DNA of 64,000 nt, taken from Rhizobacter sp. (GTDB lineage Bacteria; Pseudomonadota; Gammaproteobacteria; Burkholderiales; Burkholderiaceae_C). Under the pieces are notes generated by a model. It was given only the letters and a program-made list of their open reading frames with translations, ran no database searches and was not told where the DNA came from. Made by a program: the position numbers and the translations under genes. Every line of letters begins with the position of its first letter. Position 1 is the first letter of the stretch. This document shows, piece by piece, positions 9,466 through 39,134 of the stretch. The stretch spans positions 10,072 through 74,071 of the forward strand of contig JBJXEJ010000118.1 in the NCBI GenBank assembly GCA_046154125.1. The letters run 5' to 3'.

Positions 9466-9546
9466 TCCCGCCAGGACCCCTGCCCGGCGCGACCGGATAA
9501 TTCGAGGTTTCCACGAGCCGCGTGCCCTCCGGGTGCGCGACGCCCC

Positions 9547-11214: not shown

Positions 11215-11277
11215 TCTGACACAGGAGCGCGGTCATCGCAAGTGGCTAGACTGCGCCTCCCAGCTCCAGGAGGCACC

Positions 11278-11883: not shown

Positions 11884-11904
11884 GCGCCGCAGGCAGGCGC
11901 ACAA

Positions 11905-11936
11905 GAAAAAAGCCGGCGTGTTGCGCCGGCTTTTTC
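11905..11936. terminator. Bidirectional intrinsic terminator between convergent genes
   Basis: AAAAAAGCCGGCG-TGTTG-CGCCGGCTTTTT: an 8-bp GC stem flanked by an A-run and a T-run. It sits between the isomerase stop (11883) and the SWIB gene stop (11981). Confidence 0.7.
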
Positions 11937-11980
11937 ATCGATCAGCAGCGCCGAAGCGCCGTTTTCACTGACCCAGACGT

Positions 11981-12361: not shown

Positions 12362-12622
12362 TTCAAATCTCTCCATCAAATAAAGGGTTGATGTGCCGGG
12401 CTGGTGGAGAACCGCATGAGCCCTCTTCATCGCAGCTGTCGTGCGCCGCCGATCGTACTGCCTGCCCTGTGCATTGAGAAGCGCGTTTCCCAGGAGAAAC
12501 ACGCATTCTTGCTCCTTGCCACGAGGATTGTCGTGTCCGCGTCACGAAGTGGCACGTGAACGGTGCGTGTTGTCGACGCGCGAGCCGCGGTGCCGGAGAG
12601 TCGCGGGCGTTATCCTTGCCGC

Positions 12623-12979
12623 ATGAAGATCATTGTTCGCTGGCTCCTGCTCGCCGCCGCCTTGCTGCTGGTGGCCTATCTGTATCCGGGCGTCTCGGTC
12701 CAGAGCTTCGGCGCGGCGATGATCGCGGCCTTCGTGCTCGGGCTGCTCAACACGCTACTGCGGCCCGTGCTGGTTCTGCTGACCCTGCCGGTCACGCTGA
12801 TCACGCTGGGCTTGTTCCTGTTCGTGATCAATGCGCTGATGTTCTATTTCGCTGCGAACATGCTGTCGGGCTTCAACGTCACCGGCTTCACGGCGGCGCT
12901 GATCGGCTCGCTGATCTACAGCCTGTGCGGCATGGTGATCGACGTGGCGATCGAGCGGTTCTTTTCCTCGAAGACCTGA
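12623..12979 (+). CDS. Phage holin family 4-TM membrane protein (PF04020-like)
   Basis: 118 aa with four hydrophobic segments. Contains LLNTLLRPVLVLLTLPVTLITLGLFLFVINALM, typical of this family. ATG at 12623. Confidence 0.6.
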   Translation: MKIIVRWLLLAAALLLVAYLYPGVSVQSFGAAMIAAFVLGLLNTLLRPVLVLLTLPVTLITLGLFLFVINALMFYFAANMLSGFNVTGFTAALIGSLIYSLCGMVIDVAIERFFSSKT

Positions 12980-22969: not shown

Positions 22970-23112
22970 GGGGGCTTTCGCAGCAAGGGCGATGGTGAGA
23001 CCGCTGGCACGCCGCCGAGTTCAGGTGGTTCGACCGCAAGGCAGCTGTCTGACGGCTTCAGCATACGGGCTGACTATGATGCCAGCCTGACTTTGCTGCA
23101 TTGTTTCGCGCC

Positions 23113-23634
23113 ATGACTGCACCCGCCGACGTTCCTTCACCCGTGCCTGCGTCGGCGTCACCGCTGACGCACTTCGACGCGACCGGGCAGGCGCACATGG
23201 TCGATGTGTCGGCCAAGGCCGAAACCCACCGCATTGCACGCGCCAGCGGCGAGATCCACATGCTGCCGACCACGCTGGCGCTGATCGAGAGCGGGCAGGC
23301 CAGGAAAGGCGACGTGCTGGGCGTCGCCCGCATTGCCGCCATCCAGGCCGCCAAGCGCACCGCCGAACTGATCCCGCTTTGCCATCCGCTGCCGATCACC
23401 CGCGTGGCGGTGGATTTCGAGATCGATCGCGCCGGCAGCCGGGTCACCTGCACCGCGCAGGTCGAAACCCTGGGGCGAACCGGTGTCGAGATGGAAGCGC
23501 TGACCGCCGTCCAGATCGGCCTGCTGACCATCTACGACATGTGCAAGGCCGCCGATCGCGGCATGGTGATGGGGCAGATCCGCGTGCTGGAGAAGCAGGG
23601 CGGGAAGTCGGGGGACTGGCTGGCGCCAGCCTGA
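23113..23634 (+). CDS. moaC: Cyclic pyranopterin monophosphate synthase MoaC
   Basis: Motifs [38 protein letters not shown] and IYDMCKA. Confidence 0.95.
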
Positions 23635-23681
23635 ACGCTCATGCTGACCAAACCCCAACCAACGCCCAGCCCCGACATCCC

Positions 23682-24803
23682 GTGAGCGCAGACAAGCCCA
23701 TCTACGTCACCCAGCCCTTCCTTCCGCCGCTGGACGATTTCATTCCGTACCTGCGCGAGATCTGGGACGCGAAGGTGCTGACCAACGGCGGGCCGTTCCA
23801 CCAGCGGCTGGAAGCGGCGCTCGTCGAGCACCTGGGTGTCAGGCATCTGTCGCTGTTCACCAACGGCACGGTCGGCCTGCTGACGGCCTTGCAGACGCTG
23901 GAGGTGACCGGCGAGGTGATCACCACGCCGTACTCGTTCGCTGCGACCGCCCATTCGGTGATGTGGAACAACCTGACCCCGGTGTTCGCCGACATCGATC
24001 CGGTCACCTGCAATCTCGACCCGGAGTGCATCGAACAGGCCATCACGCCGCGAACCACCGCGATCATGCCGGTCCACTGCTACGGCACGCCGTGCGACGT
24101 GGACCGCATCAAGCAGATTGCGGACGCCCACGGGCTGAAGGTGATCTACGACGCCGCGCACGCGTTCGGCGTGCGGTACCGCGGCGAAAGCCTGCTCAAC
24201 CACGGCGACCTGTCGGTGCTGAGCTTTCACGCCACCAAGGTCTACACGACCCTCGAAGGCGGCGCGATCGTCTGCCCCGACGCCACGACCAAGAAGCGCA
24301 TCGACCACCTGAAGAATTTCGGTTTCGCCAACGAGGTGACCGTTCTGGCGGCCGGCATCAACGGCAAGATGAACGAAGTACAGGCGGCGCTCGGCCTGTT
24401 GCAGCTGGCGCATGTCGATCAACTGATCGCACGTCGGGCGCAGATCGCGCGGCTCTACGACGAAGGGCTGGGCTCGATCGAGGGCATCCGCGTGGGACGC
24501 ACGCTTCCGGACGTGCAGCCGAACCACTCGTATTACCCGATCTTCATCGGCGACCGTTTCCCGATCAGCCGCGATGAGGTCTACACCCGCCTGCGCGAAC
24601 ACGGTGTCTATGCACGTCGCTACTTCTACCCCTTGCTGAGCGACATGCCGATGTACCGCGACATGCCCTCGGCGGAACCCGCGAACCTGCCGCACGCGGC
24701 AAGAACCGCACGCGAGGTGTTGTGCCTGCCGATCTATCCCGCCCTGCAGGACGACGACGTGATGCGGGTGATCCAGCTGATCCGGTCCTGTCGGGCAGGT
24801 TGA
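23682..24803 (+). CDS. DegT/DnrJ/EryC1/StrS family PLP-dependent sugar aminotransferase
   Basis: Family layout IYVTQPFLPPLDDFIPYLREIWDAKVLTNGGPFHQRLE with the PLP-lysine context LSFHATKVYT. GTG at 23682 is in frame with ORF 23379..24803. Confidence 0.85.
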   Translation: MSADKPIYVTQPFLPPLDDFIPYLREIWDAKVLTNGGPFHQRLEAALVEHLGVRHLSLFTNGTVGLLTALQTLEVTGEVITTPYSFAATAHSVMWNNLTPVFADIDPVTCNLDPECIEQAITPRTTAIMPVHCYGTPCDVDRIKQIADAHGLKVIYDAAHAFGVRYRGESLLNHGDLSVLSFHATKVYTTLEGGAIVCPDATTKKRIDHLKNFGFANEVTVLAAGINGKMNEVQAALGLLQLAHVDQLIARRAQIARLYDEGLGSIEGIRVGRTLPDVQPNHSYYPIFIGDRFPISRDEVYTRLREHGVYARRYFYPLLSDMPMYRDMPSAEPANLPHAARTAREVLCLPIYPALQDDDVMRVIQLIRSCRAG

Positions 24804-24843
24804 ACCGACGCGCCAGGGGTGTTTGGGCCCAAGGTGATGCAAC

Positions 24844-25653
24844 TCATGGCTGGAACCGGTGATCCAGTTCGTCGAGCGGCTCGCGGGAGATGCTGAAGCT
24901 CGACGTGTCGGGATAGGCGCGGTCGATGAAGCCAGGCTCGGCAAGGTCGTTGAACCGGATGCTGACCGCCACTCGCAAGGCGTCGCCTTCGGGGCTGGAG
25001 CGATGAACGGTGAATGCCGAAAACGCAACCAGGTCACCGCGACGCAAAGCCAGGCGCACCGGCTGCATCGTCAGCGCAGAGTCATGCACTCTGGACCCGC
25101 AGCGAGATACGTCGTAAGGCAACACACCGCCAAGGTGACTTCCCGGGTACATATCCAAGCTGCTGTGCTCTTCACCCACATCGTGCAAGGGAAACCAGAC
25201 CACCAGGCCATTGTGCGAACCCTGCATGACCGGCCACTCCTGGTGAGGCGGACGAATGTTGTACCCACCCTCGAAGTGCAGGTCGGCGGCGATGACGATG
25301 GGGTACGGCTTCAGGGCCACGACGGGATGCTGCAGTCCGAGGTCCCTGAGCACGCCCTGCAACGCCGGTTCAGCCGCGGCGGACAAGACCGCGACATCCA
25401 GTTGCGAGACCTTCAGCGCACTGAGATATCGGTCGGGTGCCTGTTCCTTCAAATCGCGCATGAGCGCTTGGCGCACGGCCAGGGGATCCTCGATCGTGAA
25501 CCGACGCCCCAGCACGTGCGCAGCCTGCAACGCGATGGGTTCAAAAATGGCATGTTCCAGGGCATCGAGGTACCGAGAGGACAGGACCTGGCGCGCGATG
25601 TGAAACCCGTCTCGGCGGTAAGTCATGTTGTCTGTCGCAGCATGCGTGATCAT
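24844..25653 (-). CDS. Phytanoyl-CoA dioxygenase (PhyH) family Fe(II)/2-oxoglutarate oxygenase
   Basis: Typical PhyH start YRRDGFHIARQVLS. Candidate facial triad: PPHQEW (H-x-E) and distal FTVHRS. An alternative start is ATG 25626. Confidence 0.65.
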   Translation of the reverse strand: MITHAATDNMTYRRDGFHIARQVLSSRYLDALEHAIFEPIALQAAHVLGRRFTIEDPLAVRQALMRDLKEQAPDRYLSALKVSQLDVAVLSAAAEPALQGVLRDLGLQHPVVALKPYPIVIAADLHFEGGYNIRPPHQEWPVMQGSHNGLVVWFPLHDVGEEHSSLDMYPGSHLGGVLPYDVSRCGSRVHDSALTMQPVRLALRRGDLVAFSAFTVHRSSPEGDALRVAVSIRFNDLAEPGFIDRAYPDTSSFSISREPLDELDHRFQP

Positions 25654-25676
25654 GGTGAATGTGACGGTTTCAGGTA

Positions 25677-26130
25677 TCAGCGTGGCGAGCGAACGACGAT
25701 CTGCCCGGGGACTCGATCATTCCCGTGGCGAAGAAGCGGCAAGCCGGCAAACTGCTCCAGTGCCCATCCCACTTCGTCGCCGCCCGGCAGCGCTCCGACG
25801 CGGGTCGCCCCGGTAAATCGACCGTTGTACTCGCAGATCGCAAACCGGCCATCGACGCACCGCTGGCAATGCACATTCAGCGGACCGCGGCAACGCAGTG
25901 CAAAGGCAGCACGCGTGCGCCAGACCCGGCCATGGTGCCCGAGGCGCAAAAGATCCTCGCCAGCCCGAGCCGGTGCGTCACCGCCAGGCTGACCTTGACG
26001 CCGAATTCGTGCGGGCTGCGGGGCCTGAAATGCGCAGAGCTTGCTCTTGTCCTTCGGTCGCTCAGCTTGCCGCCGGCGCTGCCCAATCGAGCCGAGGTGC
26101 CGAAGAGGCTGGCGCCTTCGGCACGCGACA
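25677..26130 (-). pseudogene. Remnant of an ATP-grasp ligase gene (3' half only, frameshifted), paralogous to 27175..28230
   Basis: ORF 25677..26213 ends GPLNVHCQRCVDGRFAICEYNGRFTGATRVGALPGGDEVGWALEQFAGLPLLRHGNDRVPGQIVVRSPR. By my count this matches the intact gene tail at 50 of 69 residues. Further upstream, similarity continues only in another frame (LGLARIFCASG versus LALRVARTFSEAG). There is no N-terminal half. The 5' limit is approximate. Confidence 0.7.
25680..25886. repeat. Direct repeat copy A (ATP-grasp 3' end, diverged)
   Basis: Nucleotide and protein similarity to 27199..27405 in the same orientation, for example GGCAAACTGCTCCAGTGCC and AATCGACCGTTGTA. I estimate 75-80% identity by eye. 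Confidence 0.75.
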
Positions 26131-26212
26131 TGCAAGAGTTGCTTTGCGCCGAGACTTGTCGGCTGAGCAATTTCGCGCCGAATTGGAGTTGCGCCTTGAA
26201 CGCTCACCCCCA

Positions 26213-26234
26213 TGATCCACCGAATGGTGGATCA
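26213..26234. other. Perfect 9-bp stem hairpin at the high-GC/low-GC boundary
   Basis: TGATCCACC-GAAT-GGTGGATCA, followed immediately by AT-rich sequence upstream of the low-GC gene. Confidence 0.6.
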
Positions 26235-26307
26235 GAAATGAAATCCAATCCACGCCGATTCATTGTTTTATTCTCGAAAACAAACAGGCAATGAGGCTTG
26301 AGCGGAA

Positions 26308-27198
26308 ATGATCATCGATGTCAGATGCAGATTTACAGGCGGCAAATCAGCCGACTACTATAGAGAGCAACTCAGAAAGAATGGAAGACTTCACCTGATC
26401 GAGTCTTTAAAGGAAGGGACTGAGGATTCCTTCTTCAAGGAGATCGAAGCAGCAGGAATCACGACGGCAGTATCCGCATCTGGATTTAATCCAGGAGCCA
26501 GCCTAGGAAAATACAACTTTTCGGATCGCACGACAAGTAACGATGAACTTGCCGAAATTCAAAAACGACACCCGAAAAAATTCATTGCTTGCGGAGGTTT
26601 AGATGTGAGCAATAATTTTCACCATTGCCTCGATGAAGTACTGAGATGTCATTATGAATTGGGAATCCATGTTTTCAGCATAGAGCCTGGTAGAGCGCCT
26701 GGCTGCCTCCCTTCCGATGAGAGCCTTGATGAAATTTACAGGCTGCTTCAGGAATTGAATTGCACCGTCATAATTCAAACCTCAGGATTGAAAGGCGGGA
26801 AATATTTAAACTACGCCGATCCTCATCACATCGAAATCATTGCGGAAAAATTTCCCTCCCTGCGGATAATATGTGCCCACGGATGTTATCCCTACGTAAG
26901 AGAGGCAATTGTGATAGCCATGAGGAGAAACAATATCTGGTTGAGTCCCGAAGGTTATTTATGGCATTTGGGGCATGAAGATTGGCTGCGGGCAATCAAC
27001 AAGGATTTCGAGGGTTTTTCAAACAAGTTTCTTTTCGGATCCGCTTATCCATTGACACCCATCAAAGCCTTTGTCGACAACTTCAAGGCGCTGTCGTTTT
27101 CCGAAGAGGTTCTACCGAAGCTCCTGTACAGAAATGCCCTCACCGCGCTCAATTGGAATGAAAACGAAGCATTTTCAAACGGCCGGCCTCAGCCATGA
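26308..27198 (+). CDS. Amidohydrolase_2 (PF04909)-like TIM-barrel protein, low-GC, apparently lacking most metal ligands
   Basis: Intact 296-aa ORF with an ATG start. Family-like landmarks are IIDVRCR (HxH position), VIIQTSG, IICAHGCYPY, LFGSAYPL and LYRNALTAL. GC is about 43-45% by hand count, versus about 65% in the flanks. Confidence 0.7.
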   Translation: MIIDVRCRFTGGKSADYYREQLRKNGRLHLIESLKEGTEDSFFKEIEAAGITTAVSASGFNPGASLGKYNFSDRTTSNDELAEIQKRHPKKFIACGGLDVSNNFHHCLDEVLRCHYELGIHVFSIEPGRAPGCLPSDESLDEIYRLLQELNCTVIIQTSGLKGGKYLNYADPHHIEIIAEKFPSLRIICAHGCYPYVREAIVIAMRRNNIWLSPEGYLWHLGHEDWLRAINKDFEGFSNKFLFGSAYPLTPIKAFVDNFKALSFSEEVLPKLLYRNALTALNWNENEAFSNGRPQP

Positions 27199-28230
27199 GC
27201 GAGGCGAGCGCAAGACCCGCCGACCCGCGACTCGGTCTTCTCCGTGGCGACGAAACGGCAAGTCGGCAAACTGCTCCAGTGCCAAGCCCACCTCGTCGTA
27301 GCCCAGCAGCGCCCGGGCGCTGGTCGCACCTGTGAATCGACCGTTGTATTCGTAGATCGCGAACCGGCCATCGGGGCACAGCTGACACTGCGCATTCAGC
27401 GGGCCACGCCAGCCCGCTTCGGAAAACGTCCGGGCCACACGCAAGGCCAGCGCTTCCAGTTGCGAGTCCACCCAGACCTCGACCTGGGCGCTCTTTCCCT
27501 GCTTCATCGAATGACAGGTCACCAGGTGATCGACGATGTCACCGGCCGGCCCGATGAAGATCTGCAGCGAACACTTGAGCTCCTCGAAACTGTTGAAGAG
27601 CGGGGCGCCCAGGCGCTCCAGTTCATCCAGGTAACTCACCAGGGCATCGCGCGAACCCAGGTACTCCTGCACCAGCATGGCGGGATTGCCCAGCACCGCT
27701 TCCAGCTGGTTTCGCTGGCGCAGGATGCGCACACCGAGCGACGCAAAGCCTGCGCGTGGCTTGGCGATCAGAGGCCAACCCACGTCATCGAGCAAGGCCT
27801 CCACGGCGATGGGATCGGCGGCCGGCGCCGAACGGGCAAACGGCAGGCCCCGGGCCACAGAAAACTGCGCGCTGCGCCACTTGTCAACGATGCAGGCAGC
27901 CGCAGTGGGACTGCCCACCAGTGCCTGCGCACCGAGGTCACGCAGTTCTCCAGCCCAATGGGCCAACCATTGCACATCATCGTCGCGGCACGGAATCACC
28001 AGTGCCGGCCGCTCTTCCTCGACCAATTGCATCAACAACGTCTTGAAAGACTGCGGATCTCCGGATGTCGGCGGCGCCAGGCAGACGCGATCCATCCGAT
28101 CGAGACTCGGTGCCCAGGGCTGCGTGTTGGTCGCGACCAGGCGCAGCGCCGAGCACCGATCACCGAGGGCATCGACCACGTTCTCGCCCACCAGCGAACC
28201 CGCGCTCAACAACAAGATTGCGGGCTTCAT
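27175..28230 (-). CDS. ATP-grasp domain ligase (carbamoyl-phosphate-synthase-like type found in glycan clusters)
   Basis: Motifs WPLIAKPRAGFASLGVRIL, AMLVQEYL and AIYEYNGRFTGA (E-x-N Mg site). The ATG at 28230 (MKPAILLLSAGS) is in frame with ORF 27175..28254. Confidence 0.8.
   Translation of the reverse strand: MKPAILLLSAGSLVGENVVDALGDRCSALRLVATNTQPWAPSLDRMDRVCLAPPTSGDPQSFKTLLMQLVEEERPALVIPCRDDDVQWLAHWAGELRDLGAQALVGSPTAAACIVDKWRSAQFSVARGLPFARSAPAADPIAVEALLDDVGWPLIAKPRAGFASLGVRILRQRNQLEAVLGNPAMLVQEYLGSRDALVSYLDELERLGAPLFNSFEELKCSLQIFIGPAGDIVDHLVTCHSMKQGKSAQVEVWVDSQLEALALRVARTFSEAGWRGPLNAQCQLCPDGRFAIYEYNGRFTGATSARALLGYDEVGLALEQFADLPFRRHGEDRVAGRRVLRSPRSWLRPAV
27199..27405. repeat. Direct repeat copy B (3' end of the intact ATP-grasp gene)
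   Basis: Counterpart of 25680..25886. See that entry. Confidence 0.75.
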
Positions 28231-28423: not shown

Positions 28424-29086
28424 TCAGATCGTGGTGCTCGCCGCGTGGCTGATGCGGCGCGCCGGGTTGCCGATGTAGACGCCTTCGGTCTCGGTGTCGG
28501 CAAGCATCACCGCACCAGCCCCGATGAAGGTTCGGGGCGCAATCGTCAAGCCGTGCTTCAAGACGGCACCCAGGCCAACGAACGATTGCTCGGCGACGCT
28601 GACGTTGCCCCCGATGTGGGCTCCCGCGGACACGAACACATGGCTGGCAAGCGAGCAGTGGTGCGAGATGATCGCGCCGCTGCGAACGATCACGTTGTCG
28701 CCGATGCGCGCGAATGGCTGGACGATCGCCTGGTCGAAGACCATGCAGTTCTCGCCGACCTGCAGGTCAGGCCACACGCCGGCCCGACCCGAGACGTAGC
28801 TGACGAATCGGTAACCCTGCGACTTGGCCGTTTCGTATCGCGCGCGGCGCAGGCCGTTGATCTGCTGGTAGCCCATCGGGATCAGCAACTGGACGTCGTC
28901 GGGTGGGCAAGCCACCGACAGGTCTTCGAACGGCACCACGGGCAGGCCTTCATGGACGCTGCCGGACATGAAGGCCCTGTCGACCGTGAACGCCACGACC
29001 TCGTGCTCACTGTCGTGCGTCAGGCAGTACCAGGCCAGGCTCGAGAAGGTACTCGCACCGAAAACGACAACGCGGGTCGCGGACAT
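28424..29086 (-). CDS. NeuD/PglD-like sugar acyltransferase (left-handed beta-helix)
   Basis: N-terminal Rossmann-like VVVFGASTFS plus hexapeptide repeats IGDNVIVRSGAIISHHCSLASHVFVSAGAHIGGNVSVAEQSFVGLGAVL. The ATG at 29086 (MSATRVV) is in frame with ORF 28424..29236. Confidence 0.8.
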   Translation of the reverse strand: MSATRVVVFGASTFSSLAWYCLTHDSEHEVVAFTVDRAFMSGSVHEGLPVVPFEDLSVACPPDDVQLLIPMGYQQINGLRRARYETAKSQGYRFVSYVSGRAGVWPDLQVGENCMVFDQAIVQPFARIGDNVIVRSGAIISHHCSLASHVFVSAGAHIGGNVSVAEQSFVGLGAVLKHGLTIAPRTFIGAGAVMLADTETEGVYIGNPARRISHAASTTI

Positions 29087-29103: not shown

Positions 29104-31215
29104 TCAAGGCAGCGGCAGCGTGATGTCCAGGTGCTCTGCGGGCAGCCCCTGACACCAGCGTCGCCACATCTGGCGCGCCGCAGCCTCCAGGCCACGAGCC
29201 ACCAGGGTCGGTTGCCGCAAGGGCGCACTTCGCCATCGGTCACGCATGCCGGAGCGCAACTCAGCGAGAGCCCCCGGGTCGCTGACCATCTGCAAGGCTC
29301 GCGCGACGAAATCATCGGGATCCGTCGCGATCCATTCTGGAAGACCCATTTTCCCCATGCCGGAAGCAGCCTGGCAGTGGGCCCGCGAAGGGCCCATGAT
29401 CGTCAGCACCGGCACACCCATCCAGAGCGCGTGGTTGGTCGTGGTGCCGCCTGTGTAGGGCCAGGTGTCCAGGATCATGTCGACCTCGTGGTGCAGCCGC
29501 AGATACTCGTTCAGCGGCACGGCAGGTCGCAGATCCAGCCGATCGGCCGCGATGCCATGGCTTTCGAATCGCTCGACCACGCTGCGACGCACCTGCTCGT
29601 CGGATGCATTGCCGATCAGCATCCGCGAGCCGGGAACGCCATGCATCACGCGCGCCCAGGTGGCGACCACCTTGTCACCGAGCTTGCTGATCCGGTTGAA
29701 ACTGCCAAAGGTGACGTGTCCGCTTGCCAGCATCGGCAGTTCGCCGACTGGCGGCGCATCGAGGTTCTGGACGAACGCGCCCGACGTCGGGATGCGGGCG
29801 AATTTTTCGGTGTAGTAGCGCTCGAACAAACCATGCGGTGAATTGAATCGATCGCACAGCATGTAATCCATCGACAGCAAACCGGTGGTGTTCGGATAGC
29901 CCAGCCACGTCACCTGCACCGGCGCCGGCTTCCGGCAGAACGCCTGCAGCCGGTTGTAGGCTGTGTGGCCGGACAGATCGAACAGCACATCGATCCTGTC
30001 GCTTCGAATCTGCTCGGCCAGTTCGTCATCCGTCATCGCCTCCACTTGCCGCCAGGCATGGCAGTGCTCGCGAAGACGCGCCGTGACGAAGTCCTGCTCG
30101 CCGCATGAGTGATAGACGAGAATCTCGACCTGCTCGCGGTCGATCGCGGCCCACACCGGGTGGATGAAATAAGCCACCGCGTGACTGCGCAGGTCGCCTG
30201 AGACGAACCCCACGCGCAACTTTCGATCCGGGTCTCGGTTGTTGGCGTGCGCCACCGGGCGGACGCGATCAGGCGCTTCGAAATGGGCGCCGAACGCCCG
30301 GTGTGCATCGAACAGCTCATCCCAGCTGACGTCCTCGTCCTGTGTCAGGCAGAACAGGTGGCTGCTGCGGATCTGGGCGTCGTCGGGCCTGAGTCGAATG
30401 GCCTCGCGCAAACACGCGGCAGCCTGCGTCAATCGCCCCGACTCGCTGAGGATCGAGCCCAGCTGCGCCAGGCTGGAAGGCTCTTGAGGCGCGATCGCCA
30501 GGGCCCGTCGGCAACTGGCTTCGGCCGCGGCCCATTGCTTCTTTTCCGCCAGCACTCGCCCCAGCCCTTCGTGAGCCTGATGCAGCTGCGGCTGCAACTC
30601 GATCGCCTTCCCGAAGGCGACTTCGGCCTGGTCCCACAGGCGCGTCTCGATGCACATCAGGCCGAGATTGCAGTGGATTCCAGCCATCTGCGGCGCCCGC
30701 GCCAGCGCGTGCTCGAAGCAGGCGCGGGCCTCGGCATGGCGGCGCTGCGCCTGCAGGATGGCACCCAGGTTGGCCAGGTTCTGCGGGCTGTTTGGTGCGA
30801 GAGCCAGCGCATCCCGGAAGCACGCCTCGGCGCCGCGGAAGTCGCCCTGCGCATGCAACGTGATGCCCAGGTTGCCGAACGCCGATGCCATCTTCGGCTG
30901 CAGCGTCACCGCCCTGGTGAACAGCGCCTGTGCAGGCTGCAGCTCACCCTGCGACAGGCAGACCACACCGAGCTTGTTGTTGATCTCAGCGTCGTCGGGA
31001 GCGAGCTTCAGCGCAGACTCCAGACACTCTCGGGCCTCCCGCAGTCGGCCGGCGCCCTGGTGGATCGAGCCCAGCACCTTCCACGGAAGGAAGTGATTCG
31101 GCATCCTCCCGGTCAATGCGGTGGCGAGCGCCAACGCTTCGGCCTGCTGCCCCGCGGCATGAAGTCGGGCGAGGCGGTCCAGCTCGGGGTTCGACGATCT
31201 ATCAGTGGCGGTCAT
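29104..31215 (-). CDS. TPR-repeat protein fused to a GT41 (O-GlcNAc transferase/SPINDLY-like) glycosyltransferase domain
   Basis: About 300 aa of TPR repeats (...AFGNLGITLHAQGDFRGAEACFRDALALAP...). These are followed by VGFVSGDLRSHAVAYF, VTWLGYPNTTG, TFGSFNRISK and DTWPYTGGTTTNHALWMGVPVLT. Confidence 0.85.
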   Translation of the reverse strand: MTATDRSSNPELDRLARLHAAGQQAEALALATALTGRMPNHFLPWKVLGSIHQGAGRLREARECLESALKLAPDDAEINNKLGVVCLSQGELQPAQALFTRAVTLQPKMASAFGNLGITLHAQGDFRGAEACFRDALALAPNSPQNLANLGAILQAQRRHAEARACFEHALARAPQMAGIHCNLGLMCIETRLWDQAEVAFGKAIELQPQLHQAHEGLGRVLAEKKQWAAAEASCRRALAIAPQEPSSLAQLGSILSESGRLTQAAACLREAIRLRPDDAQIRSSHLFCLTQDEDVSWDELFDAHRAFGAHFEAPDRVRPVAHANNRDPDRKLRVGFVSGDLRSHAVAYFIHPVWAAIDREQVEILVYHSCGEQDFVTARLREHCHAWRQVEAMTDDELAEQIRSDRIDVLFDLSGHTAYNRLQAFCRKPAPVQVTWLGYPNTTGLLSMDYMLCDRFNSPHGLFERYYTEKFARIPTSGAFVQNLDAPPVGELPMLASGHVTFGSFNRISKLGDKVVATWARVMHGVPGSRMLIGNASDEQVRRSVVERFESHGIAADRLDLRPAVPLNEYLRLHHEVDMILDTWPYTGGTTTNHALWMGVPVLTIMGPSRAHCQAASGMGKMGLPEWIATDPDDFVARALQMVSDPGALAELRSGMRDRWRSAPLRQPTLVARGLEAAARQMWRRWCQGLPAEHLDITLPLP

Positions 31216-31272: not shown

Positions 31273-33072
31273 TCAGCGGAAATCGCGATCGTCCATCACG
31301 GTGGTCGGCGGCACGCACTGGAACGGTACCGGCGTCACGTCTTCGCTGCACGTCGCGAAGAACTCCCTCGACGCCGGGTTGTGGAATTCGCGCAGCCGCG
31401 CAGCGATGTGACGCGCTCGCTCGACATCACCGCTGTCGGCCAGCGCCTGCGCCCAGGCCATCATCAGCCGCGTGTCGAGCAGGAAATGCCTGGCGCCGTC
31501 CATCGCGCGCAGCACCTCTGCGGAAGACGCGTGGGTGGTGGCGGCCGCGTAGTCGGCGTGGTGCGAGAACAGCACGCTGCGCCGACCCGCGGCAATGCGT
31601 TCGGCGAGTGGCGGCGCGTCTTCACCGGGCTCGAAGATTGCCACCACCGGGATGTAGTCGATCACCGACAAGGCGCCGCACGCAGTCAGCGTCATCGAGG
31701 CGAACCAGAGTGACCTTGCGGGAGTGCGCGTTGCCGATGCGGGGTTCGTCGGTCGCACAGTCAGTGGCTCGGCGCCGAGGCACAGGCCCCAGGCAAAGGC
31801 GGCCGGCAGCAGGAAGTACGCGTACCACAGCGGGTATTCGAGCAGGCTGTGCCAAGCCACCAGCAACACCATGATGCAGGCAAACCGCGCCAGCGCAGGC
31901 GACGCACGGCCGAGTTCGGACCCAGTTGCGCCGCCGGCCTTCCAGGCGCGCCACAGCGGCCAGGTCAGCAACGCCGTCACGACCAGCGCCAGCGGCACCC
32001 CGAGCTCGACCACGAACTGCAGCATCAGGTTGTGGGTGTGGTCAAAGAACGCGACCGGCCGCCCGGGAAACGGGGTCAACGACCAGGCCAGGTTGAACTC
32101 GCCCCAGCCGACACCGAACCACGGCCGCTGCGCGATCAGGCCCAGCGTGTCGGCCCAGATACCGAAGCGCGAACTGGAGATGTCGGCCTCGCTGCGCAGC
32201 CGTGCGGCACCGCCGAAGACATGGCCGCTGGCGTCGGCCCAAGCCGTCAGGCCGAACCAGCACACCGCATAGATCACCGGGGAGAGACAGAGCAGCAGGC
32301 GCGTTCGGCGCGACAGGTTGCGATCGAGTGCGCCCCAGACGGCCAGCGCCAGCACGCCCAGCATGCCGGTGCGCGAGGCGCTCAGCACCAGGCCGAAGAT
32401 GAGTGCCAGCAGCCCGGCGTACAAACCCGCGAGCCAGCCCGGCCGTGCCGACAGTCGCCCGGTCTCGACCGATTCGGCCAGCCACAGCAAGGCCACGACC
32501 GACCACAGCAGCAAGCTGCTCAGGTGATTGGGCTGTCGCAGGTTGCCGGCCGCGCGCCCCTCCAGCGCCGTGATCGCGATCCACTGCCCATCGGCCCAGT
32601 GCGGCACAAACACCTGCACCGCGCCCACGGCCACGCTGAGCAGGCCCGCGATCAGCAGCGCGATGCACAACGCCCGGAACGCTGCCACACCCTGGCCGGC
32701 AGACATCGCCGCCGCACCGACGCAAGCCACCAGCCCGGCCGCCGACAGCATCCCGATCGCCGACAGCGCCAGCGACGCCGGCAGGCCGGTCAGCGCCCAC
32801 GACCCCGCGCAGGCCGCGATCAACAGCATCAGCGCAGCCAGCAGCGCCTTCAGGCCAGCGCCCCAGCGCAACGACACGCCCGCGGGGGCGGACGCCAGGC
32901 GCCACGCCGCCACGGCACAGAACACGCCCCATCCCGACACCGCTGCGGCCTGGTTGAGAAAGGTCGCCGACGGGGGCAGGTTGGCGGCCAGCAACGCCGC
33001 CGGCACGACCGCCAGACAGGCAGCGACGGTGAGCCCCACTGCGTTGGCAGGCGCAGCGTCGCTGCGCGACAT
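31273..33072 (-). CDS. O-antigen ligase/PglL-like polytopic membrane protein with Wzy_C_2-type C-terminal domain (putative O-oligosaccharyltransferase 2)
   Basis: Many TM segments. Wzy_C-like motifs LSASRTGMLG, FFDHTHNLMLQFVVELG and HSLLEYPLWYAYFLLP. Soluble C-terminal domain ...RHFLLDTRLMMAWAQALADSGDVERARHIAARL. ATG at 33072. Confidence 0.75.
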   Translation of the reverse strand: MSRSDAAPANAVGLTVAACLAVVPAALLAANLPPSATFLNQAAAVSGWGVFCAVAAWRLASAPAGVSLRWGAGLKALLAALMLLIAACAGSWALTGLPASLALSAIGMLSAAGLVACVGAAAMSAGQGVAAFRALCIALLIAGLLSVAVGAVQVFVPHWADGQWIAITALEGRAAGNLRQPNHLSSLLLWSVVALLWLAESVETGRLSARPGWLAGLYAGLLALIFGLVLSASRTGMLGVLALAVWGALDRNLSRRTRLLLCLSPVIYAVCWFGLTAWADASGHVFGGAARLRSEADISSSRFGIWADTLGLIAQRPWFGVGWGEFNLAWSLTPFPGRPVAFFDHTHNLMLQFVVELGVPLALVVTALLTWPLWRAWKAGGATGSELGRASPALARFACIMVLLVAWHSLLEYPLWYAYFLLPAAFAWGLCLGAEPLTVRPTNPASATRTPARSLWFASMTLTACGALSVIDYIPVVAIFEPGEDAPPLAERIAAGRRSVLFSHHADYAAATTHASSAEVLRAMDGARHFLLDTRLMMAWAQALADSGDVERARHIAARLREFHNPASREFFATCSEDVTPVPFQCVPPTTVMDDRDFR

Positions 33073-33255
33073 CGGCGAAGGATCCGGGCCCTGCCGACCC
33101 GCGGAGCTCACGATGTCACCCAACGAACACACCGGTTCCTTGAAGACGGACGGGTAGGGTGATCGGTGTCTCGGCCATGTCGCTTCCTTGAGAAGACGAC
33201 GATCGTAATGCGGCCCCGCAGCATGACGGGCGCACTCGCTGCGGTCAGCGTCCGA

Positions 33256-34023
33256 TCAGAAGAATCCTTCCACCGGCAGATGACCAACGACTCGCGCACC
33301 GGGAGCCGCGACCAGCGAGACCCAGCTCGCTCGACGCGACATCAGCGGCAGGAAGCGCAGCGCCGCCGGCGGCTGACCGGCGGCCTGGGCGATGGCGGCC
33401 ACGTCGGGCGCCAGCCGCGGGTACTGGGCCAGCAGCACCGAGACCGGGCGGGCGACCCGCCAGACCTGGTCGGCGTGTGCCGCGTACTCGCGCCATTGCT
33501 TGGGTTGCATCGCCAGGTCGACGCCGGACAGCCCCAGTTCGATCGACTTCATCTGGTCGTCTGGGTTGTCGGGCTTGACCGCCGCGATCAGCTTCGGCCC
33601 GGTCCAAGACAGGCTCCCCAGACCCGTCGGCGCGTCGCCCAGCATGGCCGGATCGATGTCGGCCGCCGTGACCACGCGCAGGCGATCCACCTCGAAGGCC
33701 AGCAGCACCGGCCGAGCCAGCGCCATCGTGTACAGCCCGTAGCCGAACGCCGCCAGCTGGATGACCACGATCACCGCCAGATCACGGGTCAACTCCGCGA
33801 GTGCCTTGCCAGGGCTGGCCACCACCGCGGTCAACGCGGGCCCGAGGACGACGTCGACGCTGACGATCAGCAGAAAGAGGCCGGCGCCTCCGGCCAGCGT
33901 GTCGTAGGGCTGGGGATACCAGACCAGGAAAACCAGCGCCGCAGAAAGCGCTGCGACCAGGCCGCTGGCGAGAAGGTGGATACCGGCCGCCCTGAGGCGG
34001 GTGATCGGGGAACGAGCCTTCAT
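33256..34023 (-). CDS. TfpX/TfpZ-like type IV pilin accessory membrane protein
   Basis: The layout matches my recollection of the family: IHLLASGLVAALSAALVFLVWYPQPY, DVVLGPALT, RPVLLAFEVDRLRVVTAADID and C-terminal LRFLPL...GHLPVEGFF. It lies between two OTase-like genes downstream of pilA. Confidence 0.6.
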   Translation of the reverse strand: MKARSPITRLRAAGIHLLASGLVAALSAALVFLVWYPQPYDTLAGGAGLFLLIVSVDVVLGPALTAVVASPGKALAELTRDLAVIVVIQLAAFGYGLYTMALARPVLLAFEVDRLRVVTAADIDPAMLGDAPTGLGSLSWTGPKLIAAVKPDNPDDQMKSIELGLSGVDLAMQPKQWREYAAHADQVWRVARPVSVLLAQYPRLAPDVAAIAQAAGQPPAALRFLPLMSRRASWVSLVAAPGARVVGHLPVEGFF

Positions 34024-34089
34024 GGGTGAAACGCTTGCTGTACGAAGTTCTTCCTGGTCAGCCCAGGGCCGGATGTTCGACCTGCCCTG

Positions 34090-35760
34090 TCATTCTGGCA
34101 AGGCCTGGTCGAGCCCGCGCAGGCCTTCCTGTTCAACGACGACCCGGTCGTGCAGATCCTTGCGGATCTTCCGGTACATCGCGTCTCCATGCACATAGCG
34201 GATCTTCTTGAACATCGAGATCGCGTCGGGCAAACGCCCGTTCAGGGCCCAGGCCCACGACATCTTGGCCATCACGCCGGAATACGGAAAGCGCTTCACA
34301 ACCGCTTCCATCGACGCCAGCTCGGCGGCGGTCATGCCAGGCGTCGGTTTCGTCCGGATGAACATGAGAAACGAGGTCTGGCTCGACAGAAAGGGCGCGT
34401 CCGGCGCCGACCCGGCGGCTGCCATCGGGCCGATGCGGAGGTTCTCGAAGCGCACGCGCCGGGCATCTTCCTCGACTTGCGGGTAATCGCGCCACATGCC
34501 CGCGACCATCACGAACGCCAGCGCCACGGGCACCCACCTCAGGGCGGCCAGCTTGCGGGTTCCAGGTGTTCCGCAAGCATGCTCGACATGACCGATCCAC
34601 AAGCCGACCGGGATGAGGAAGTAGGCGTAGTGATAAGGCAGTTCGAGCATGCTGTGGATACCGAACAGGGTAACGCTCAGCAGGCCGACGACCCCTTCGA
34701 CGGACGCCACCCGCCACCACCGGCTTGCATACCAGAACAAGATCAGGCCGCTCAGAAACACGCCGAGCGGATAGCCGCACCACAGCGCCAGTTCGAGAAA
34801 AAGGTTGTGGGCCTGCTGCCACACCCCGTGCAGCGGCGGGTAGCGATCCGCCACCGCCAGTTGCGCGCTGGCGGTCTGCAACCACCCCACGCCTTTCCAC
34901 GGCGATTGCGACAGCGCGTCTACGAACATCGCCCAACCCTGGAAGCGGCCCGCGTCCATGCTGCGCGCACTGAGCGAGGCCGTGGTGTCCAGCAGCAAGG
35001 CGTCCTGCAGCACCGGCCAGCCCCACGACATCAACCAGTGCGCCAGCGTGGCCGCGCACACCGCGAGCAGGCTGACGCGAAGCGCCACACCGCGCTGTCG
35101 GGCGATGAACAATCCCACGAGCACGGCCGGTCCGAACAGCATCGCCGTTCGCGACTGGGAGGTGGCCGCGCCCAGCAGCAGGAAACCCAGCAGCAAGCCA
35201 GCCACCCACGCACCGAGGCGCCGTTGCTCGTGGAGCAGCAGCAGGCCCATCGCACCCAGACCGAGCAGGGTGGCCAGGTTGTTGGGCTGGGCCAGATTCG
35301 CGCAGGCACGGCCTCCGGTGCACAAGCCCAGACTCAACAGCCCCAGGTTACCGACCCGCAGACCCTGGAAAAGAGCGATCGCCGCCGACAGCACGCTGCC
35401 CAGCACGATGGTGCCGGCCAGAAGAGCTGCCGATCCTTTGGCATCGCGCCGGGCCCAGGTGAAGCCTGTCAGGACGGCGATTGCAAGCCCGAGCACATAG
35501 ACGCTGCCGACCACCGCATCGCCCGTGAAGGCCAGCTGTCCCGCGGTCCATTGAATCCATGGAATGGCAGCGACCGCGACCACCACCCAGAACGCCGCCG
35601 GGACACGGGCCGGAGTCGCCCCGCGCCTGAAGGTGCCGAGCAGCAGCAGCATCAGGCCCAGCGCCATGGCACTGTCGTTGTAGGCAGACAGCCACGGGAG
35701 GTAGTGATCGGGGATCAACCAGGCGGCCGCGATGGCGGCCGAACCGAACAGTTCGAACAT
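34090..35760 (-). CDS. PglL/TfpO-like O-oligosaccharyltransferase (Wzy_C + PglL-type N-terminus + Wzy_C_2 C-terminus), putative OTase 1
   Basis: Motifs LIPDHYLPWLSAYNDS, ATSQSRTAMLFG, QQAHNLFLELALWCG and HSMLELPYHYAYFLIP. Located immediately downstream of pilA. ATG at 35760 (MFELFGS). Confidence 0.8.
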   Translation of the reverse strand: MFELFGSAAIAAAWLIPDHYLPWLSAYNDSAMALGLMLLLLGTFRRGATPARVPAAFWVVVAVAAIPWIQWTAGQLAFTGDAVVGSVYVLGLAIAVLTGFTWARRDAKGSAALLAGTIVLGSVLSAAIALFQGLRVGNLGLLSLGLCTGGRACANLAQPNNLATLLGLGAMGLLLLHEQRRLGAWVAGLLLGFLLLGAATSQSRTAMLFGPAVLVGLFIARQRGVALRVSLLAVCAATLAHWLMSWGWPVLQDALLLDTTASLSARSMDAGRFQGWAMFVDALSQSPWKGVGWLQTASAQLAVADRYPPLHGVWQQAHNLFLELALWCGYPLGVFLSGLILFWYASRWWRVASVEGVVGLLSVTLFGIHSMLELPYHYAYFLIPVGLWIGHVEHACGTPGTRKLAALRWVPVALAFVMVAGMWRDYPQVEEDARRVRFENLRIGPMAAAGSAPDAPFLSSQTSFLMFIRTKPTPGMTAAELASMEAVVKRFPYSGVMAKMSWAWALNGRLPDAISMFKKIRYVHGDAMYRKIRKDLHDRVVVEQEGLRGLDQALPE

Positions 35761-35793
35761 CAGATCAGGACCGTCGATGCGTTTGCAGGATTG

Positions 35794-35821
35794 AAAAAGG
35801 GCAGCCTGCGCTGCCCTTTTC
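35794..35821 (-). terminator. Intrinsic terminator/attenuator just after pilA
   Basis: The minus strand reads GAAAAGGGCAGC-GCAG-GCTGCCCTTTTTCAA: a 9-bp GC-rich stem followed by a T-run. It lies 18 nt after the pilA stop and before the OTase start. Confidence 0.65.
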
Positions 35822-35838
35822 ACATTGAGACATTGAAA

Positions 35839-36489
<651 letters not shown>

Positions 36490-37539: not shown

Positions 37540-38193
37540 TCAGCGATTGATGAACTGCATCTGGGTGCCGGCCAGCTCGATCACGTCGCCGTCCTTCAGC
37601 TGCGTGGTCTCGGTCACCAGGGGGTTGCCGTTGACCGTGGGCCGTGCCGAACCTTCGACGTGTGCAAACACGTATCCGGTGGGGCGCTTGGTGATCGATG
37701 CCACCTGCACGCCAGGCTTGCCGATGGTGGTGACGACCTTGGTCAGCGAAACCTCGCGGCCGGCTGCGGCCCCGTTGAGCACTTTGATCGACGCCGTGGT
37801 GCCGAGCGCGCCGAAGGTGGAGGCGGGCTGCAGGCCCGGCTGCACCGGAGCCGCCGAAGCATGCGAACCCGGTCGCATGATCTGCGTGGCCTCGTAGTCG
37901 GTGCCGTCGGCCACGAGGTACTTGATCTTGTACTTGCCGATCTCGACCGTGTCGTTGTGCACCAGCAGCTGCTTCTTGATGGCCTTGCCGTTGATGTAGG
38001 TGCCGTTGGTGCTGTTCAGGTCTTCGATGAACACGTCAGCGCCCAGCATCTGGAGCACGGCGTGCTCGCCGCTGACAGCAAGGTTGTCGATGACGATGTC
38101 GTTGTAGGGACGGCGGCCGAGCGTGGTCTTGTCCTTGGTGACTTGCACTTCCTTGATCACCACGCCATCGAGCGATACCACCAGTTTGCCCAT
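37540..38193 (-). CDS. FHA domain-containing protein (N-terminal FHA plus a second FHA-like C-terminal domain)
   Basis: FHA motif TLGRRPYNDIVIDNLAVSGEHAVL...STNGTYINGK. The second module is TTIGKPGVQVASI...VNGNPL...LKDGDVIELAGTQMQF. Confidence 0.85.
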   Translation of the reverse strand: MGKLVVSLDGVVIKEVQVTKDKTTLGRRPYNDIVIDNLAVSGEHAVLQMLGADVFIEDLNSTNGTYINGKAIKKQLLVHNDTVEIGKYKIKYLVADGTDYEATQIMRPGSHASAAPVQPGLQPASTFGALGTTASIKVLNGAAAGREVSLTKVVTTIGKPGVQVASITKRPTGYVFAHVEGSARPTVNGNPLVTETTQLKDGDVIELAGTQMQFINR

Positions 38194-38270
38194 GCTTGAC
38201 CTCGTCTGTTGTTGTGTCTACGTGGTGGAAACCATCGCTCGAGCGGTTGAAACGAAAGCCGGCGCCGCGA

Positions 38271-39053
38271 TCACCGCTTGAACGGCCACCAGGACCGGGC
38301 GGTACCGGTCGGGCCCTGAACACGCACCAAAATGACAGCAATGTTATCTTTTCCGCCAGCCTCGTTGGCCGCTGCGATCAGGGCGCGAGCGCCTGTTTCG
38401 ATGCTTTCGCACGCTTGCAGCAGCGTACCGATGCGCTCGTCGTCGAGCATGTCGGACAAGCCGTCGGAGCACAGCAGCACGAGGTCACCGGGCAGCAGGT
38501 CGTGCAGGTGCGACTCCAGCATCACCGTGTCCTCGACGCCCACCGCACGCGTGACCAGGTTCTTGTTAGACGAGAACGCAGCCTGTTCTTCAGTGATGAG
38601 ACCGGCGTCGATCTGCTCCTGTAGCAGCGAGTGGTCGTGCGTGATGCGCGTGAACTCGCCGGCACGCAGGCGGTAGCCGCGGGAATCGCCGACATGGCCC
38701 AGCAGCAGCCGGCCTTCACGGAATACGCCAACCACCAGCGTCGTGCCCATGCCTGCGTACTGCGGATTCGAGTTGGCGGCATTGAAGATCGCGCGGTTGG
38801 CGTTGTCGACACAGATGTCCATCGCGCGCCGGACATCGGCATCGGTTGCGTTGGACGAGGCCTCGGTCAGCCAGCGGCCGAGTTCGGTGAGGATGAACGA
38901 GGTGGCCATATTGCTGGCCACTTCACCGGCGTTGTAGCCGCCCATCCCGTCGGCCAGCACGACCAGCGCTGAGCCGGTATCGACCGCGACCGAGTCCTCG
39001 TTGTTGTTGCGCGCGCGACCGGTGTCGGTGGCACTGAAAAACTCGAACGGCAT
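38271..39053 (-). CDS. PP2C-family Ser/Thr protein phosphatase
   Basis: Motifs TDTGRARNNNEDS, LADGMGG, GDSRGY, LLCSDGL and GGKDNIAVILV. ATG at 39053 (MPFEFF). Confidence 0.9.
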   Translation of the reverse strand: MPFEFFSATDTGRARNNNEDSVAVDTGSALVVLADGMGGYNAGEVASNMATSFILTELGRWLTEASSNATDADVRRAMDICVDNANRAIFNAANSNPQYAGMGTTLVVGVFREGRLLLGHVGDSRGYRLRAGEFTRITHDHSLLQEQIDAGLITEEQAAFSSNKNLVTRAVGVEDTVMLESHLHDLLPGDLVLLCSDGLSDMLDDERIGTLLQACESIETGARALIAAANEAGGKDNIAVILVRVQGPTGTARSWWPFKR

Positions 39054-39134
39054 AAGTTTCGGACCGGCACGAACAAGGAACGGCGATGCGTCAGAGCGAA
39101 CGCCTAGGTCCGCCAGCGACGCGCGCAAGGGCAA

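Follow-up and report, generated by a model that had tools for sequence, protein, structure and literature searches.

A TIM barrel without the canonical metal ligands, probably of Bacteroidota origin, beside an ATP-grasp ligase in a Rhizobacter pilin glycosylation island

Results

A low-GC barrel gene that meets an ATP-grasp ligase gene

The window analysed here is a stretch of 64,000 nucleotides (64 kb) from Rhizobacter sp. (GenBank assembly GCA_046154125.1, contig JBJXEJ010000118.1), and our subject is one gene within it that encodes a TIM-barrel protein of the Amidohydro_2 family (hereafter the barrel) and ends against an ATP-grasp ligase gene inside a type IV pilin glycosylation island. Weighing all of the evidence, we lean towards the explanation that this is a selected barrel from a branch of the family that lacks the canonical metal ligands, that it derives from Bacteroidota, and that it is paired with the ligase in the glycan island. 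The features at the core of the locus are as follows (GC, guanine plus cytosine content; ORF, open reading frame):

26308..27198, plus strand: barrel gene, ATG start, 296 aa, Amidohydro_2 (PF04909), BB4693-like D-x-R-x-R branch
~26214..27175: low-GC tract, very probably foreign, consisting of a 94-nt leader and the barrel gene to about codon 290 (fine GC profile, junction alignments)
26214..26233: perfect palindrome GATCCACC-GAAT-GGTGGATC with an 8-bp stem, exactly at the 5′ GC switch (sequence reading)
27175..27198: convergent 3′ overlap of 24 nt between the barrel and ATP-grasp genes, also found in the related loci L006 and L010
27175..28230, minus strand: partner ATP-grasp ligase, 351 aa from the ATG at 28230; the longest ORF extends to 28254

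The tract (GC 0.448) lies at z = -6.1 relative to 900-nt windows across the 64 kb (mean 0.665 +/- 0.036), the next-lowest 900-nt value outside it being 0.606, and GC at third codon positions (GC3) is 0.48 for the barrel gene compared to 0.65-0.87 for its neighbours. A preliminary description of this DNA had called the gene low in GC from hand counts of three short segments, and these counts are exact (0.450 for 26308-26367, 0.433 for 26521-26580 and 0.650 for 27421-27480, the last within the ligase gene). The 24-nt overlap that it reported at 27175-27198 can likewise be read directly in the sequence. The 3′ junction of the barrel gene is the ligase stop codon, and the last seven or so barrel codons (NGRPQP and the stop) are the antisense of the ATP-grasp 3′ end; the C-terminal end of Algoriphagus barrel proteins is unlike this. 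A third related locus, L019, lacks the overlap, its barrel gene having its own stop codon and a spacer of ~130 nt. At the 5′ end, the palindrome abuts the start codon of a 178-aa minus-strand ORF and is degenerate in L019. We regard it as almost certain that the barrel ORF is a real gene under selection and a member of the D-x-R-x-R branch set out below.

A branch of Amidohydro_2 with a different set of conserved residues

The claim that the intact 296-aa product is a PF04909 TIM barrel is borne out by both profile and structure. The Pfam model matches residues 75-281 at 73.6 bits (gathering cut-off 26.4), precomputed annotation places PF04909 on all 120 barrel homologs listed, and the AlphaFold 2 (AF2) model has eight strand/helix units at a predicted local distance difference test (pLDDT) of 90 and a predicted template modelling score (pTM) of 0.90; NCBIfam has no model matching the protein. 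The top PDB match by sequence (E 4e-33; profile E 1e-51) as well as by fold (Foldseek E 2e-18, template modelling (TM) score 0.78) is 3IRS, the structure of BB4693 from Bordetella bronchiseptica. The next-best structures, at 12-20% identity, are LigW2, gamma-resorcylate decarboxylase (gamma-RSD), LigJ, LigY and ACMSD, which together with a LigI-like structure are found by Foldseek at probability 1.00 and TM 0.55-0.71.

An hhalign comparison of the barrel family with human ACMSD (96.5% probability; the ACMSD sequence was checked residue by residue against 2WM1) pairs Q157 with His174, H191 with His224 and A246 with Asp291. HMMER alignments to ACMSD and to 3NUR are consistent with this mapping, A246 pairing with the Asp of 'AADYP' in 3NUR, and they agree with the alignment by eye in the preliminary description, which had put Q157 and A246 at ligand positions and H191 as the histidine that is kept. 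Its placement of R6 and R8 at the His-x-His positions also stands, though here the profile alignments of the barrel itself begin beyond strand 1 and the mapping comes from the motif 'IIDVRCR', its location in predicted strand 1, residue numbers equal to those of 'KIDIHSH' in ACMSD, and a paralog starting 'MLIDFRLRPP' whose match to the Pfam model begins with residue 3 on profile position 1. A PDB search with the N-terminal 71 residues of the barrel returned noise only.

Compared to the canonical metal-dependent Amidohydro_2 enzymes, the barrel thus lacks the strand-1, strand-5 and strand-8 ligands and has the strand-6 His (H191); the His-x-His, His and Asp that are kept in the LigI type are absent from it as well. 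It does have each of the elements by which we define a BB4693-like branch, namely D-x-R-x-R in strand 1, an acidic residue in strand 4, H-G in strand 6 and [FY]-x-x-[ASG]-Y-P in strand 8, and 3IRS is closer to it than any other solved protein. In an exhaustive search of 1.84 billion representatives with a profile of the family, 171 clusters (50% identity) passed E<=1e-30 and 1,083 passed E<=1e-10. Over 125 full-length cluster representatives of the branch, the signature positions are occupied as follows:

Position 4: Asp in 120/125 clusters
Position 6: Arg in 115/125 clusters
Position 8: Arg in 118/125 clusters
Position 126: Glu or Asp in 116/125 clusters
Position 191: His in 125/125 clusters
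Position 157: T/M/S/Q, with His in 0/125 clusters
Position 246: A/S/G/T, with Asp in 0/125 clusters

Closer to the window protein, 37 homologs (48-84% identical) have invariant R6, R8, E126-P-G-R129, S159-G160 and H191-G-C-Y-P, with Q157 and T158 nearly so; their alignment contains 59 invariant columns at a mean column identity of 65%, which exceeds that of the ligase. D99, H105 and C193 do not vary within this close family either; conservation of C193, H105 and R129 does not extend to the wider branch. Paralogs at only 27-34% identity retain D-x-R-x-R. The C-terminal ends of the strands, in all eight cases, hold more than their share of the invariant residues (28/72 compared to 31/219 elsewhere, odds ratio 3.9, p = 1.5e-5). 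Within the window clade, the ratio of nonsynonymous to synonymous substitution rates (dN/dS) is 0.064-0.084 for the barrel, compared to 0.22-0.27 for the ligase and 0.14-0.18 for a nearby DegT aminotransferase gene.

Recent decay of the barrel gene is ruled out by a dN/dS of ~0.07, and as this value goes together with invariant residues crowding the catalytic face, a pseudoenzyme appears unlikely. Judged from these sequences, the absence of the canonical ligands is an ancient trait of the whole branch, common to the Bacteroidota donors and BB4693, and an alternative conserved set consisting of D4, R6, R8, E126 and H191 stands in their place. The gene had been described as having lost the canonical active site; the ligands are indeed absent, but loss is a misleading word for it, since the whole branch is without them. 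Literature searches on BB4693/3IRS, on PF04909 with ATP-grasp, on metal-independent amidohydrolases, and on amidohydrolase plus ATP-grasp in O-antigen N-acylation found nothing relevant, and no description of the R-x-R signature, the ATP-grasp pairing or the function of the branch was found in the literature searched.

A separate locus, L047, contains four tandem R-x-R barrel paralogs (2342-12762), 27-34% identical to the window barrel, interleaved with genes for GFO/IDH/MocA, epimerase/dehydratase and FAD oxidoreductase proteins, with an MFS transporter gene adjoining.

Transfer of a single gene

A scan of species-representative genomes provided 39 barrel loci for comparison. The barrels most similar to that of the window are in L019 (a Burkholderiaceae metagenome-assembled genome (MAG), 93%), L006 (a metagenomic relative, 84%) and L010 (a Pseudomonadota MAG, 83%), followed by those of Algoriphagus (78-82%), Chlorobiaceae (78%), Salinisphaerales (76%) and Saprospiraceae (73%), with the remaining Burkholderiales and betaproteobacterial barrels at 48-57%. 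The preliminary description took closest homologs from the same high-GC lineage to count against transfer; the nearest are indeed from that lineage, though trivially, as sister orthologs with the same low-GC gene, and the next are from Algoriphagus. The gene order of the window is maintained in L019, L010 and L006, with 81-90% nucleotide identity, and all three carry the low-GC barrel at the same site (GC 0.42-0.48, flanks 0.63-0.68), which makes the acquisition older than the split between these lineages. The junctions are common to five independent assemblies, among them a Logan assembly (L005) that reproduces those of the window at 99.9% identity, which excludes an assembly chimera. In Algoriphagus the GC of the barrel gene equals that of the host, whereas it is 21-25 points lower in the window clade and 0-10 points lower elsewhere; native-type betaproteobacterial barrels have 62-68% GC and are ~50% identical to that of the window.

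Trees of the two neighbouring genes (neighbour-joining, 31-32 taxa, 200 bootstraps) tell different stories. The barrel tree places the window clade with Bacteroidota-type barrels in 197/200 replicates and with an Algoriphagus-like set in 149/200, whereas in the ATP-grasp tree the window clade joins Algoriphagus in 0/200 and Bacteroidota plus Chlorobi are monophyletic without the window clade in 188/200. Identity to the Algoriphagus proteins is correspondingly ~80% for the barrel and ~41% for the ligase. Since the two trees conflict and the tract covers one gene, the transfer would have involved the barrel gene alone, co-transfer of barrel and ligase from Bacteroidota being excluded by the ligase tree (0/200). 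Its direction follows from the composition and from the nesting of the window clade inside Bacteroidota diversity, and we think it very probable that the barrel was acquired from an Algoriphagus-like member of the Bacteroidota. The earlier suggestion of a horizontally acquired, intact gene is thus upheld by composition, by the tree conflict and by a defined one-gene tract.

A similar picture emerges in a Chlorobiaceae MAG (L015) and a Salinisphaerales MAG (L016/L003), where a Bacteroidota-type barrel lies 8-11 GC points under its flanks, suggesting that this type of allele was transferred independently on other occasions as well.

The ATP-grasp ligase as the main partner

The window ligase gives weak Pfam matches to PylC-like_N and ATP-grasp_3, and scores 123 bits, below the cut-off, against NCBIfam NF009402; it is of the PRK12767 'carbamoyl-phosphate-synthase-like' type. 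Its ortholog, at 41-47% identity (E 1e-74 to 1e-82), is a gene of ~360-370 aa that adjoins the barrel gene in Algoriphagus, Pseudohoeflea, cyanobacteria, Chlorobiaceae and many betaproteobacteria, and a ligase ortholog lies <=2.4 kb from the barrel in 28/39 loci. The two genes are co-directional in several genomes, with a 4-nt overlap in Pseudohoeflea, and are often translationally coupled. When the neighbouring genes were clustered, the ligase emerged as the sole near-universal partner, compared to ~19 loci with a GT2 glycosyltransferase, ~10-13 with DegT and some with NeuD-type acetyltransferases; no dehydrogenase was conserved beside the pair.

A reverse test, which began from ligase orthologs in cultured isolates, recovered loci with the ligase and a different companion. 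In Thioalkalivibrio paradoxus (L049 5569-8080) a gene of the MmgE/PrpD family precedes the ligase and there is no barrel, and the same is found in Zoogloea dura (L050 3554-8131), where the order is TPR-GT41, PrpD, ligase and the TPR-GT41 gene is 39% identical to that of the window. Barrel and PrpD are both missing from a Methylophagaceae locus, in which the ligase is accompanied by TauD, DegT and GT2. PrpD orthologs also occur in three barrel loci (L025, L026 and L033), of which L026 and L033 have a second ligase paralog, and in the ligase tree the PrpD-paired and barrel-paired ligases interleave. The 64-kb window contains no second barrel copy and no PrpD remnant, and a profile search with the ligase family found only direct orthologs among the matches listed. 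We consider it probable that the barrel is functionally coupled to the ligase in glycan tailoring.

The surrounding island

The setting in a pilin island, as originally proposed, is supported by a pilin gene and two genes of the PglL/Wzy_C type, and the expectation that glycan-tailoring enzymes occupy this slot is supported by the surrounding genes:

~23197..23634, plus strand: MoaC gene (Pfam 194 bits), first of the plus-strand group
~23730..24803, plus strand: DegT/DnrJ/EryC1 sugar aminotransferase (Pfam 353 bits)
24844..25653, minus strand: PhyH-family dioxygenase (Pfam 44.8 bits)
25665..25892, minus strand: diverged partial ATP-grasp copy (last ~76 codons; 79% nt, ~70% aa identity)
28424..29086, minus strand: NeuD/PglB/VioB-family sugar N-acetyltransferase (TIGR03570 172 bits, cut-off 160.8; Pfam Hexapep)
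29104..31215, minus strand: TPR + GT41 glycosyltransferase (Pfam)
31273..33132, minus strand: PglL/Wzy_C-type O-oligosaccharyltransferase-like protein, second copy (Pfam Wzy_C, Wzy_C_2, PglL_A)
34090..35823, minus strand: PglL/Wzy_C-type O-oligosaccharyltransferase-like protein, first copy (Pfam)
35842..36432, minus strand: type IV pilin, the presumed glycosylation target (Pfam Pilin and N_methyl)

Read along the minus strand, the order is pilin, the two PglL/Wzy_C-type genes, TPR-GT41, the NeuD/PglB/VioB-family N-acetyltransferase (220 aa in L006) and the ATP-grasp ligase. An 11-kb block had been taken to lie on the minus strand with the barrel gene as the sole exception, which does not hold, as MoaC and DegT lie on the plus strand 1.5 kb upstream. 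MoaC is collinear with L006, L010 and L019; the DegT gene is DesI/PseC-like below the equivalog cut-offs and has 86% nucleotide identity to L006, where MoaC and DegT directly precede the barrel gene. The minus-strand ORFs 23058-23531 and 23532-25037 are spurious antisense frames, having no Pfam matches where the L006 comparison shows MoaC and DegT.

The gap between DegT and the barrel (24804-26307 in the window) is a variable cargo slot. PhyH and the ligase fragment fill it both here and in L019; in L010 (~8474-10000) its occupant is a paralog of the hexapeptide transferase, and in L006 (166 nt, 1862-2027) it is empty. PhyH, present in L019 and absent from L006 and L010, belongs to an insertion of ~1.4 kb that L006 lacks, and its segment is 97-99% identical in nucleotides to L019 compared to 79-93% for the flanks, which suggests that the cassette was recently exchanged between lineages. 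The ligase fragment forms a 228-nt direct repeat (25665-25892 and 27184-27411) on opposite sides of the barrel gene, found by tblastn, blastp and a repeat search alike, and provides the C-terminus of the doubtful 178-aa minus-strand ORF (25677-26213, with a GC3 of 0.65 that is low by the standard of this genome), whose N-terminal half (25893-26213) gave no match and of which 25813-26118 is absent from L019. The repeat region looks like a recombination scar.

Further along, the two PglL/Wzy_C-type genes downstream of the pilin gene are ~29% identical over 136 aa, and the ~0.9 kb between them (33166-34029) has long ORFs on both strands with no Pfam match. Just past the pilin gene and a metallo-beta-lactamase-fold gene there is a cluster (37540-40460) of genes for an FHA-domain protein, a PP2C phosphatase and a Ser/Thr protein kinase.

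Comparison with known systems

The nearest solved relative, BB4693 (3IRS/3K4W, deposited as an 'uncharacterized TIM-barrel protein'), has the same signature as the window barrel (IIDFRLRPP, MMTGGN, SSHGNWP and FGTAYP, its N-terminus having been read through a closer paralog). It is only 29% identical and is without R129, Q157, C193, R198 and D225-W226 of the close family, and its closest homolog among the loci fetched, in L047 (phmmer E 9e-104), lies among sugar oxidoreductases and has no ATP-grasp partner. ACMSD, LigW/LigW2, gamma-RSD, LigJ and LigY share the Pfam family, the (beta/alpha)8 fold (TM 0.55-0.71) and the strand-6 His with the barrel, and these metal-dependent decarboxylases and hydratases all use carboxylated substrates. 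The window barrel differs from the ACMSD/LigW type in having R6/R8, Q157 and A246 in place of His/His (or Glu/His), His and Asp, and in lacking the insertion that ACMSD has after strand 1. The 2-pyrone-4,6-dicarboxylate lactonase LigI (cog3618) is metal-independent and keeps His-x-His, His and Asp. It is thus a precedent for metal-free catalysis on the same fold (the LigI-like structure 4i6k matches at TM 0.60 and 13% identity), though the chemistry of the barrel would not be that of LigI in detail, as these residues are absent from it.

Two further comparisons concern the ligase. In Neisseria, the ATP-grasp domain of PglB2 is responsible for N-glyceroylation of a pilin sugar, with a hydroxy acid in place of N-acetylation, and PglB2 was acquired as an inserted fragment termed 'pglB2-ORF8' (PMC11130364). 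We take it as an analogy both for the window ligase, each ATP-grasp gene belonging to a locus for O-glycosylation of type IV pilin, and for a modular locus driven by recombination; PglB2 differs in being fused to a phosphoglycosyltransferase. Enzymes of the MmgE/PrpD family, such as 2-methylcitrate dehydratase and cis-aconitate decarboxylase, occupy the same slot by the ligase and have an unrelated fold.

Discussion

A proposed role in acid processing for pilin glycan acylation

We propose that the ancestor of a small Burkholderiaceae-type clade gained the barrel gene alone from an Algoriphagus-like Bacteroidota donor, on a tract that would comprise one gene and its 94-nt leader, with the 3′ end becoming fused into the antisense of the resident ligase 3′ end. 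The 45% GC of the barrel gene would result from this acquisition history. ATP-grasp enzymes activate carboxylates as acyl phosphates and then ligate them to amines. The window ligase would accordingly be expected to activate a carboxylic acid in this way and join it to the amino group of the amino sugar made by DegT, in the manner of PglB2, which forms the glyceramido-acetamido-trideoxyhexose of Neisseria pilin; the acid would be other than acetate, and the N-acylated amino sugar would belong to the pilin glycan. The barrel may make or reshape the acid substrate of the ligase, or else the acylated product, with Arg6 and Arg8 (plus R129 and R198) holding carboxylate or phosphate groups where its relatives use metal, and with H191 and E126 serving as acid/base.

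Some hints concern the mechanism. In Thioalkalivibrio and Zoogloea an enzyme of the MmgE/PrpD family, whose members are dehydratases and decarboxylases of di- and tricarboxylic acids, stands in place of the barrel beside the same ligase family, and the nearest characterised fold relatives of the barrel are decarboxylases, hydratases and lactonases of carboxylated substrates. We tentatively suggest a metal-free, acid-processing chemistry for the barrel, a part of the proposal to which we give clearly less than an even chance. A bolder generalisation, possible but doubtful in our view, is that D-x-R-x-R barrels are an unrecognised metal-free class in which an arginine pair substitutes for the metal, and that with the ligase they install an unusual N-acyl group (a polycarboxylic or hydroxy acid) on amino sugars of surface glycans, including that of pilin, doing the same job as MmgE/PrpD in a module that spreads between phyla gene by gene.

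Several observations weigh against this proposal as a whole. We infer the spatial arrangement of R6, R8, E126 and H191 from barrel topology only, and E126 (strand 4) and H191 (strand 6) could still bind a metal; literature searches found no known activity for any branch member and no paper on BB4693. Eleven loci (L038-L048, <=51% barrel identity) have no ligase nearby and there are ligase orthologs without any barrel, so that the coupling is frequent rather than obligate, and in the window itself the two genes are convergent, hence not co-transcribed. As they occur together in L025, L026 and L033, the modules with PrpD and with the barrel might run in parallel instead of substituting for each other. 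As to the transfer, the trees are not maximum likelihood, the barrel branches as (window, L019) and (L006, L010), unlike the ligase, and barrel synonymous divergence (dS) within the clade is 0.47 to saturated, 2-6x that of the flanks (ATP-grasp 0.25-0.34, DegT 0.35-0.59). This excess and branching are more than one ancient transfer can fully account for; contributions could come from faster synonymous change in a gene far from its equilibrium composition, from exchange of alleles or from acquisition on more than one occasion.

Alternative explanations

The preliminary description had left three options for the function, a pseudoenzyme, a sugar- or ligand-binding protein, or a catalyst with new chemistry, of which the last is now favoured and the first disfavoured by a dN/dS of 0.06-0.08 and by conservation of the catalytic face. 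A non-catalytic barrel, which as a pseudoenzyme would do no more than bind a ligand or would serve the ATP-grasp ligase as its scaffold or specificity subunit, would agree with the absence of all four canonical metal ligands, with an adjacency to the ligase that is tight and often translationally coupled, and with the fact that no member has a known activity, including BB4693, which was solved in 2009. We nevertheless find it improbable, owing to the strength of selection (dN/dS ~0.07, and a mean column identity of 65% that is above that of the ligase), to invariant polar residues at the C-terminal ends of the eight strands, with the general-base-type H191 present in 125/125 clusters, to the eleven family loci that are without the ligase, and to the bona fide enzyme family, MmgE/PrpD, that fills the slot where the barrel is absent. 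Catalysis might alternatively depend on a metal after all, with the site relocated to a single metal on E126 and H191 plus D99, C193 or H105, resembling E. coli NagA. In binuclear amidohydrolases the strand-4 and strand-6 residues are ligands of the beta-metal, and NagA, which has Q-x-N in place of H-x-H, binds one metal in the beta site; E/D126 and H191 are moreover conserved throughout the branch, and within the close family D99, H105 and C193 show no variation. Such a site seems unlikely, as the strand-5 His that would complete the beta site is never present (position 157 being T/M/S/Q), C193, H105 and R129 are not conserved across the wider branch, and a cation at the mouth would be unfavourable next to two invariant, positively charged arginines; the PDB titles of 3IRS make no mention of a metal, though this is weak evidence.

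The substrate of the barrel could also be the sugar and not the acid; the barrel might then be, for instance, a lactonase, isomerase or epimerase of an oxidised or keto sugar intermediate, with its arginines holding a nucleotide diphosphate or a uronate carboxylate. Characterised PF04909/cog3618 enzymes do include sugar lactonases, the surroundings of the distant R-x-R paralogs include genes for GFO/IDH/MocA, epimerase/dehydratase and FAD oxidoreductases and for an MFS transporter, and DegT and GT2 genes are neighbours of the barrel. This would, however, leave the occurrence of MmgE/PrpD, enzymes of small polycarboxylic acids, beside the same ligase unexplained, and the pair has no conserved dehydrogenase next to it, so we hold it to be rather improbable. 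Finally, the low GC might have arisen without any transfer, from an assembly chimera or in a locally selected AT-rich native gene, given that glycan loci are often somewhat AT-rich and that many genomes have a barrel gene whose GC is a few points short of that of its flanks. We find this scarcely credible, since five independent assemblies have the same junctions, a deficit of 21-25 points is confined to the window clade (0-10 elsewhere), the barrel and ligase trees conflict (149-197/200 compared to 0/200), and native-type betaproteobacterial barrels, ~50% identical, have a GC of 62-68%.

Implications

The branch is already implicit in a structural-genomics entry of 2009 (BB4693), and the transfer into the glycan island is ordinary in kind though unusually clean. 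What had appeared to be a barrel with missing ligands becomes a defined and testable family, with at least 171 clusters at 50% identity and invariant alternative residues. The pairing with ATP-grasp ligases in glycan loci and the alternation with MmgE/PrpD provide the first functional handle on the BB4693-like family, pointing to carboxylic-acid chemistry that feeds an amide ligation. For the enzymology of amidohydrolases the proposal, if true, would mean that arginines stand in place of the metal site throughout a branch. For the diversification of glycan islands, the locus combines replacement of a single gene across phyla with changing cargo in the gap that separates DegT from the barrel, and for glycobiology it predicts that the pilin glycan of these Burkholderiaceae would carry an unusual N-acyl substituent.

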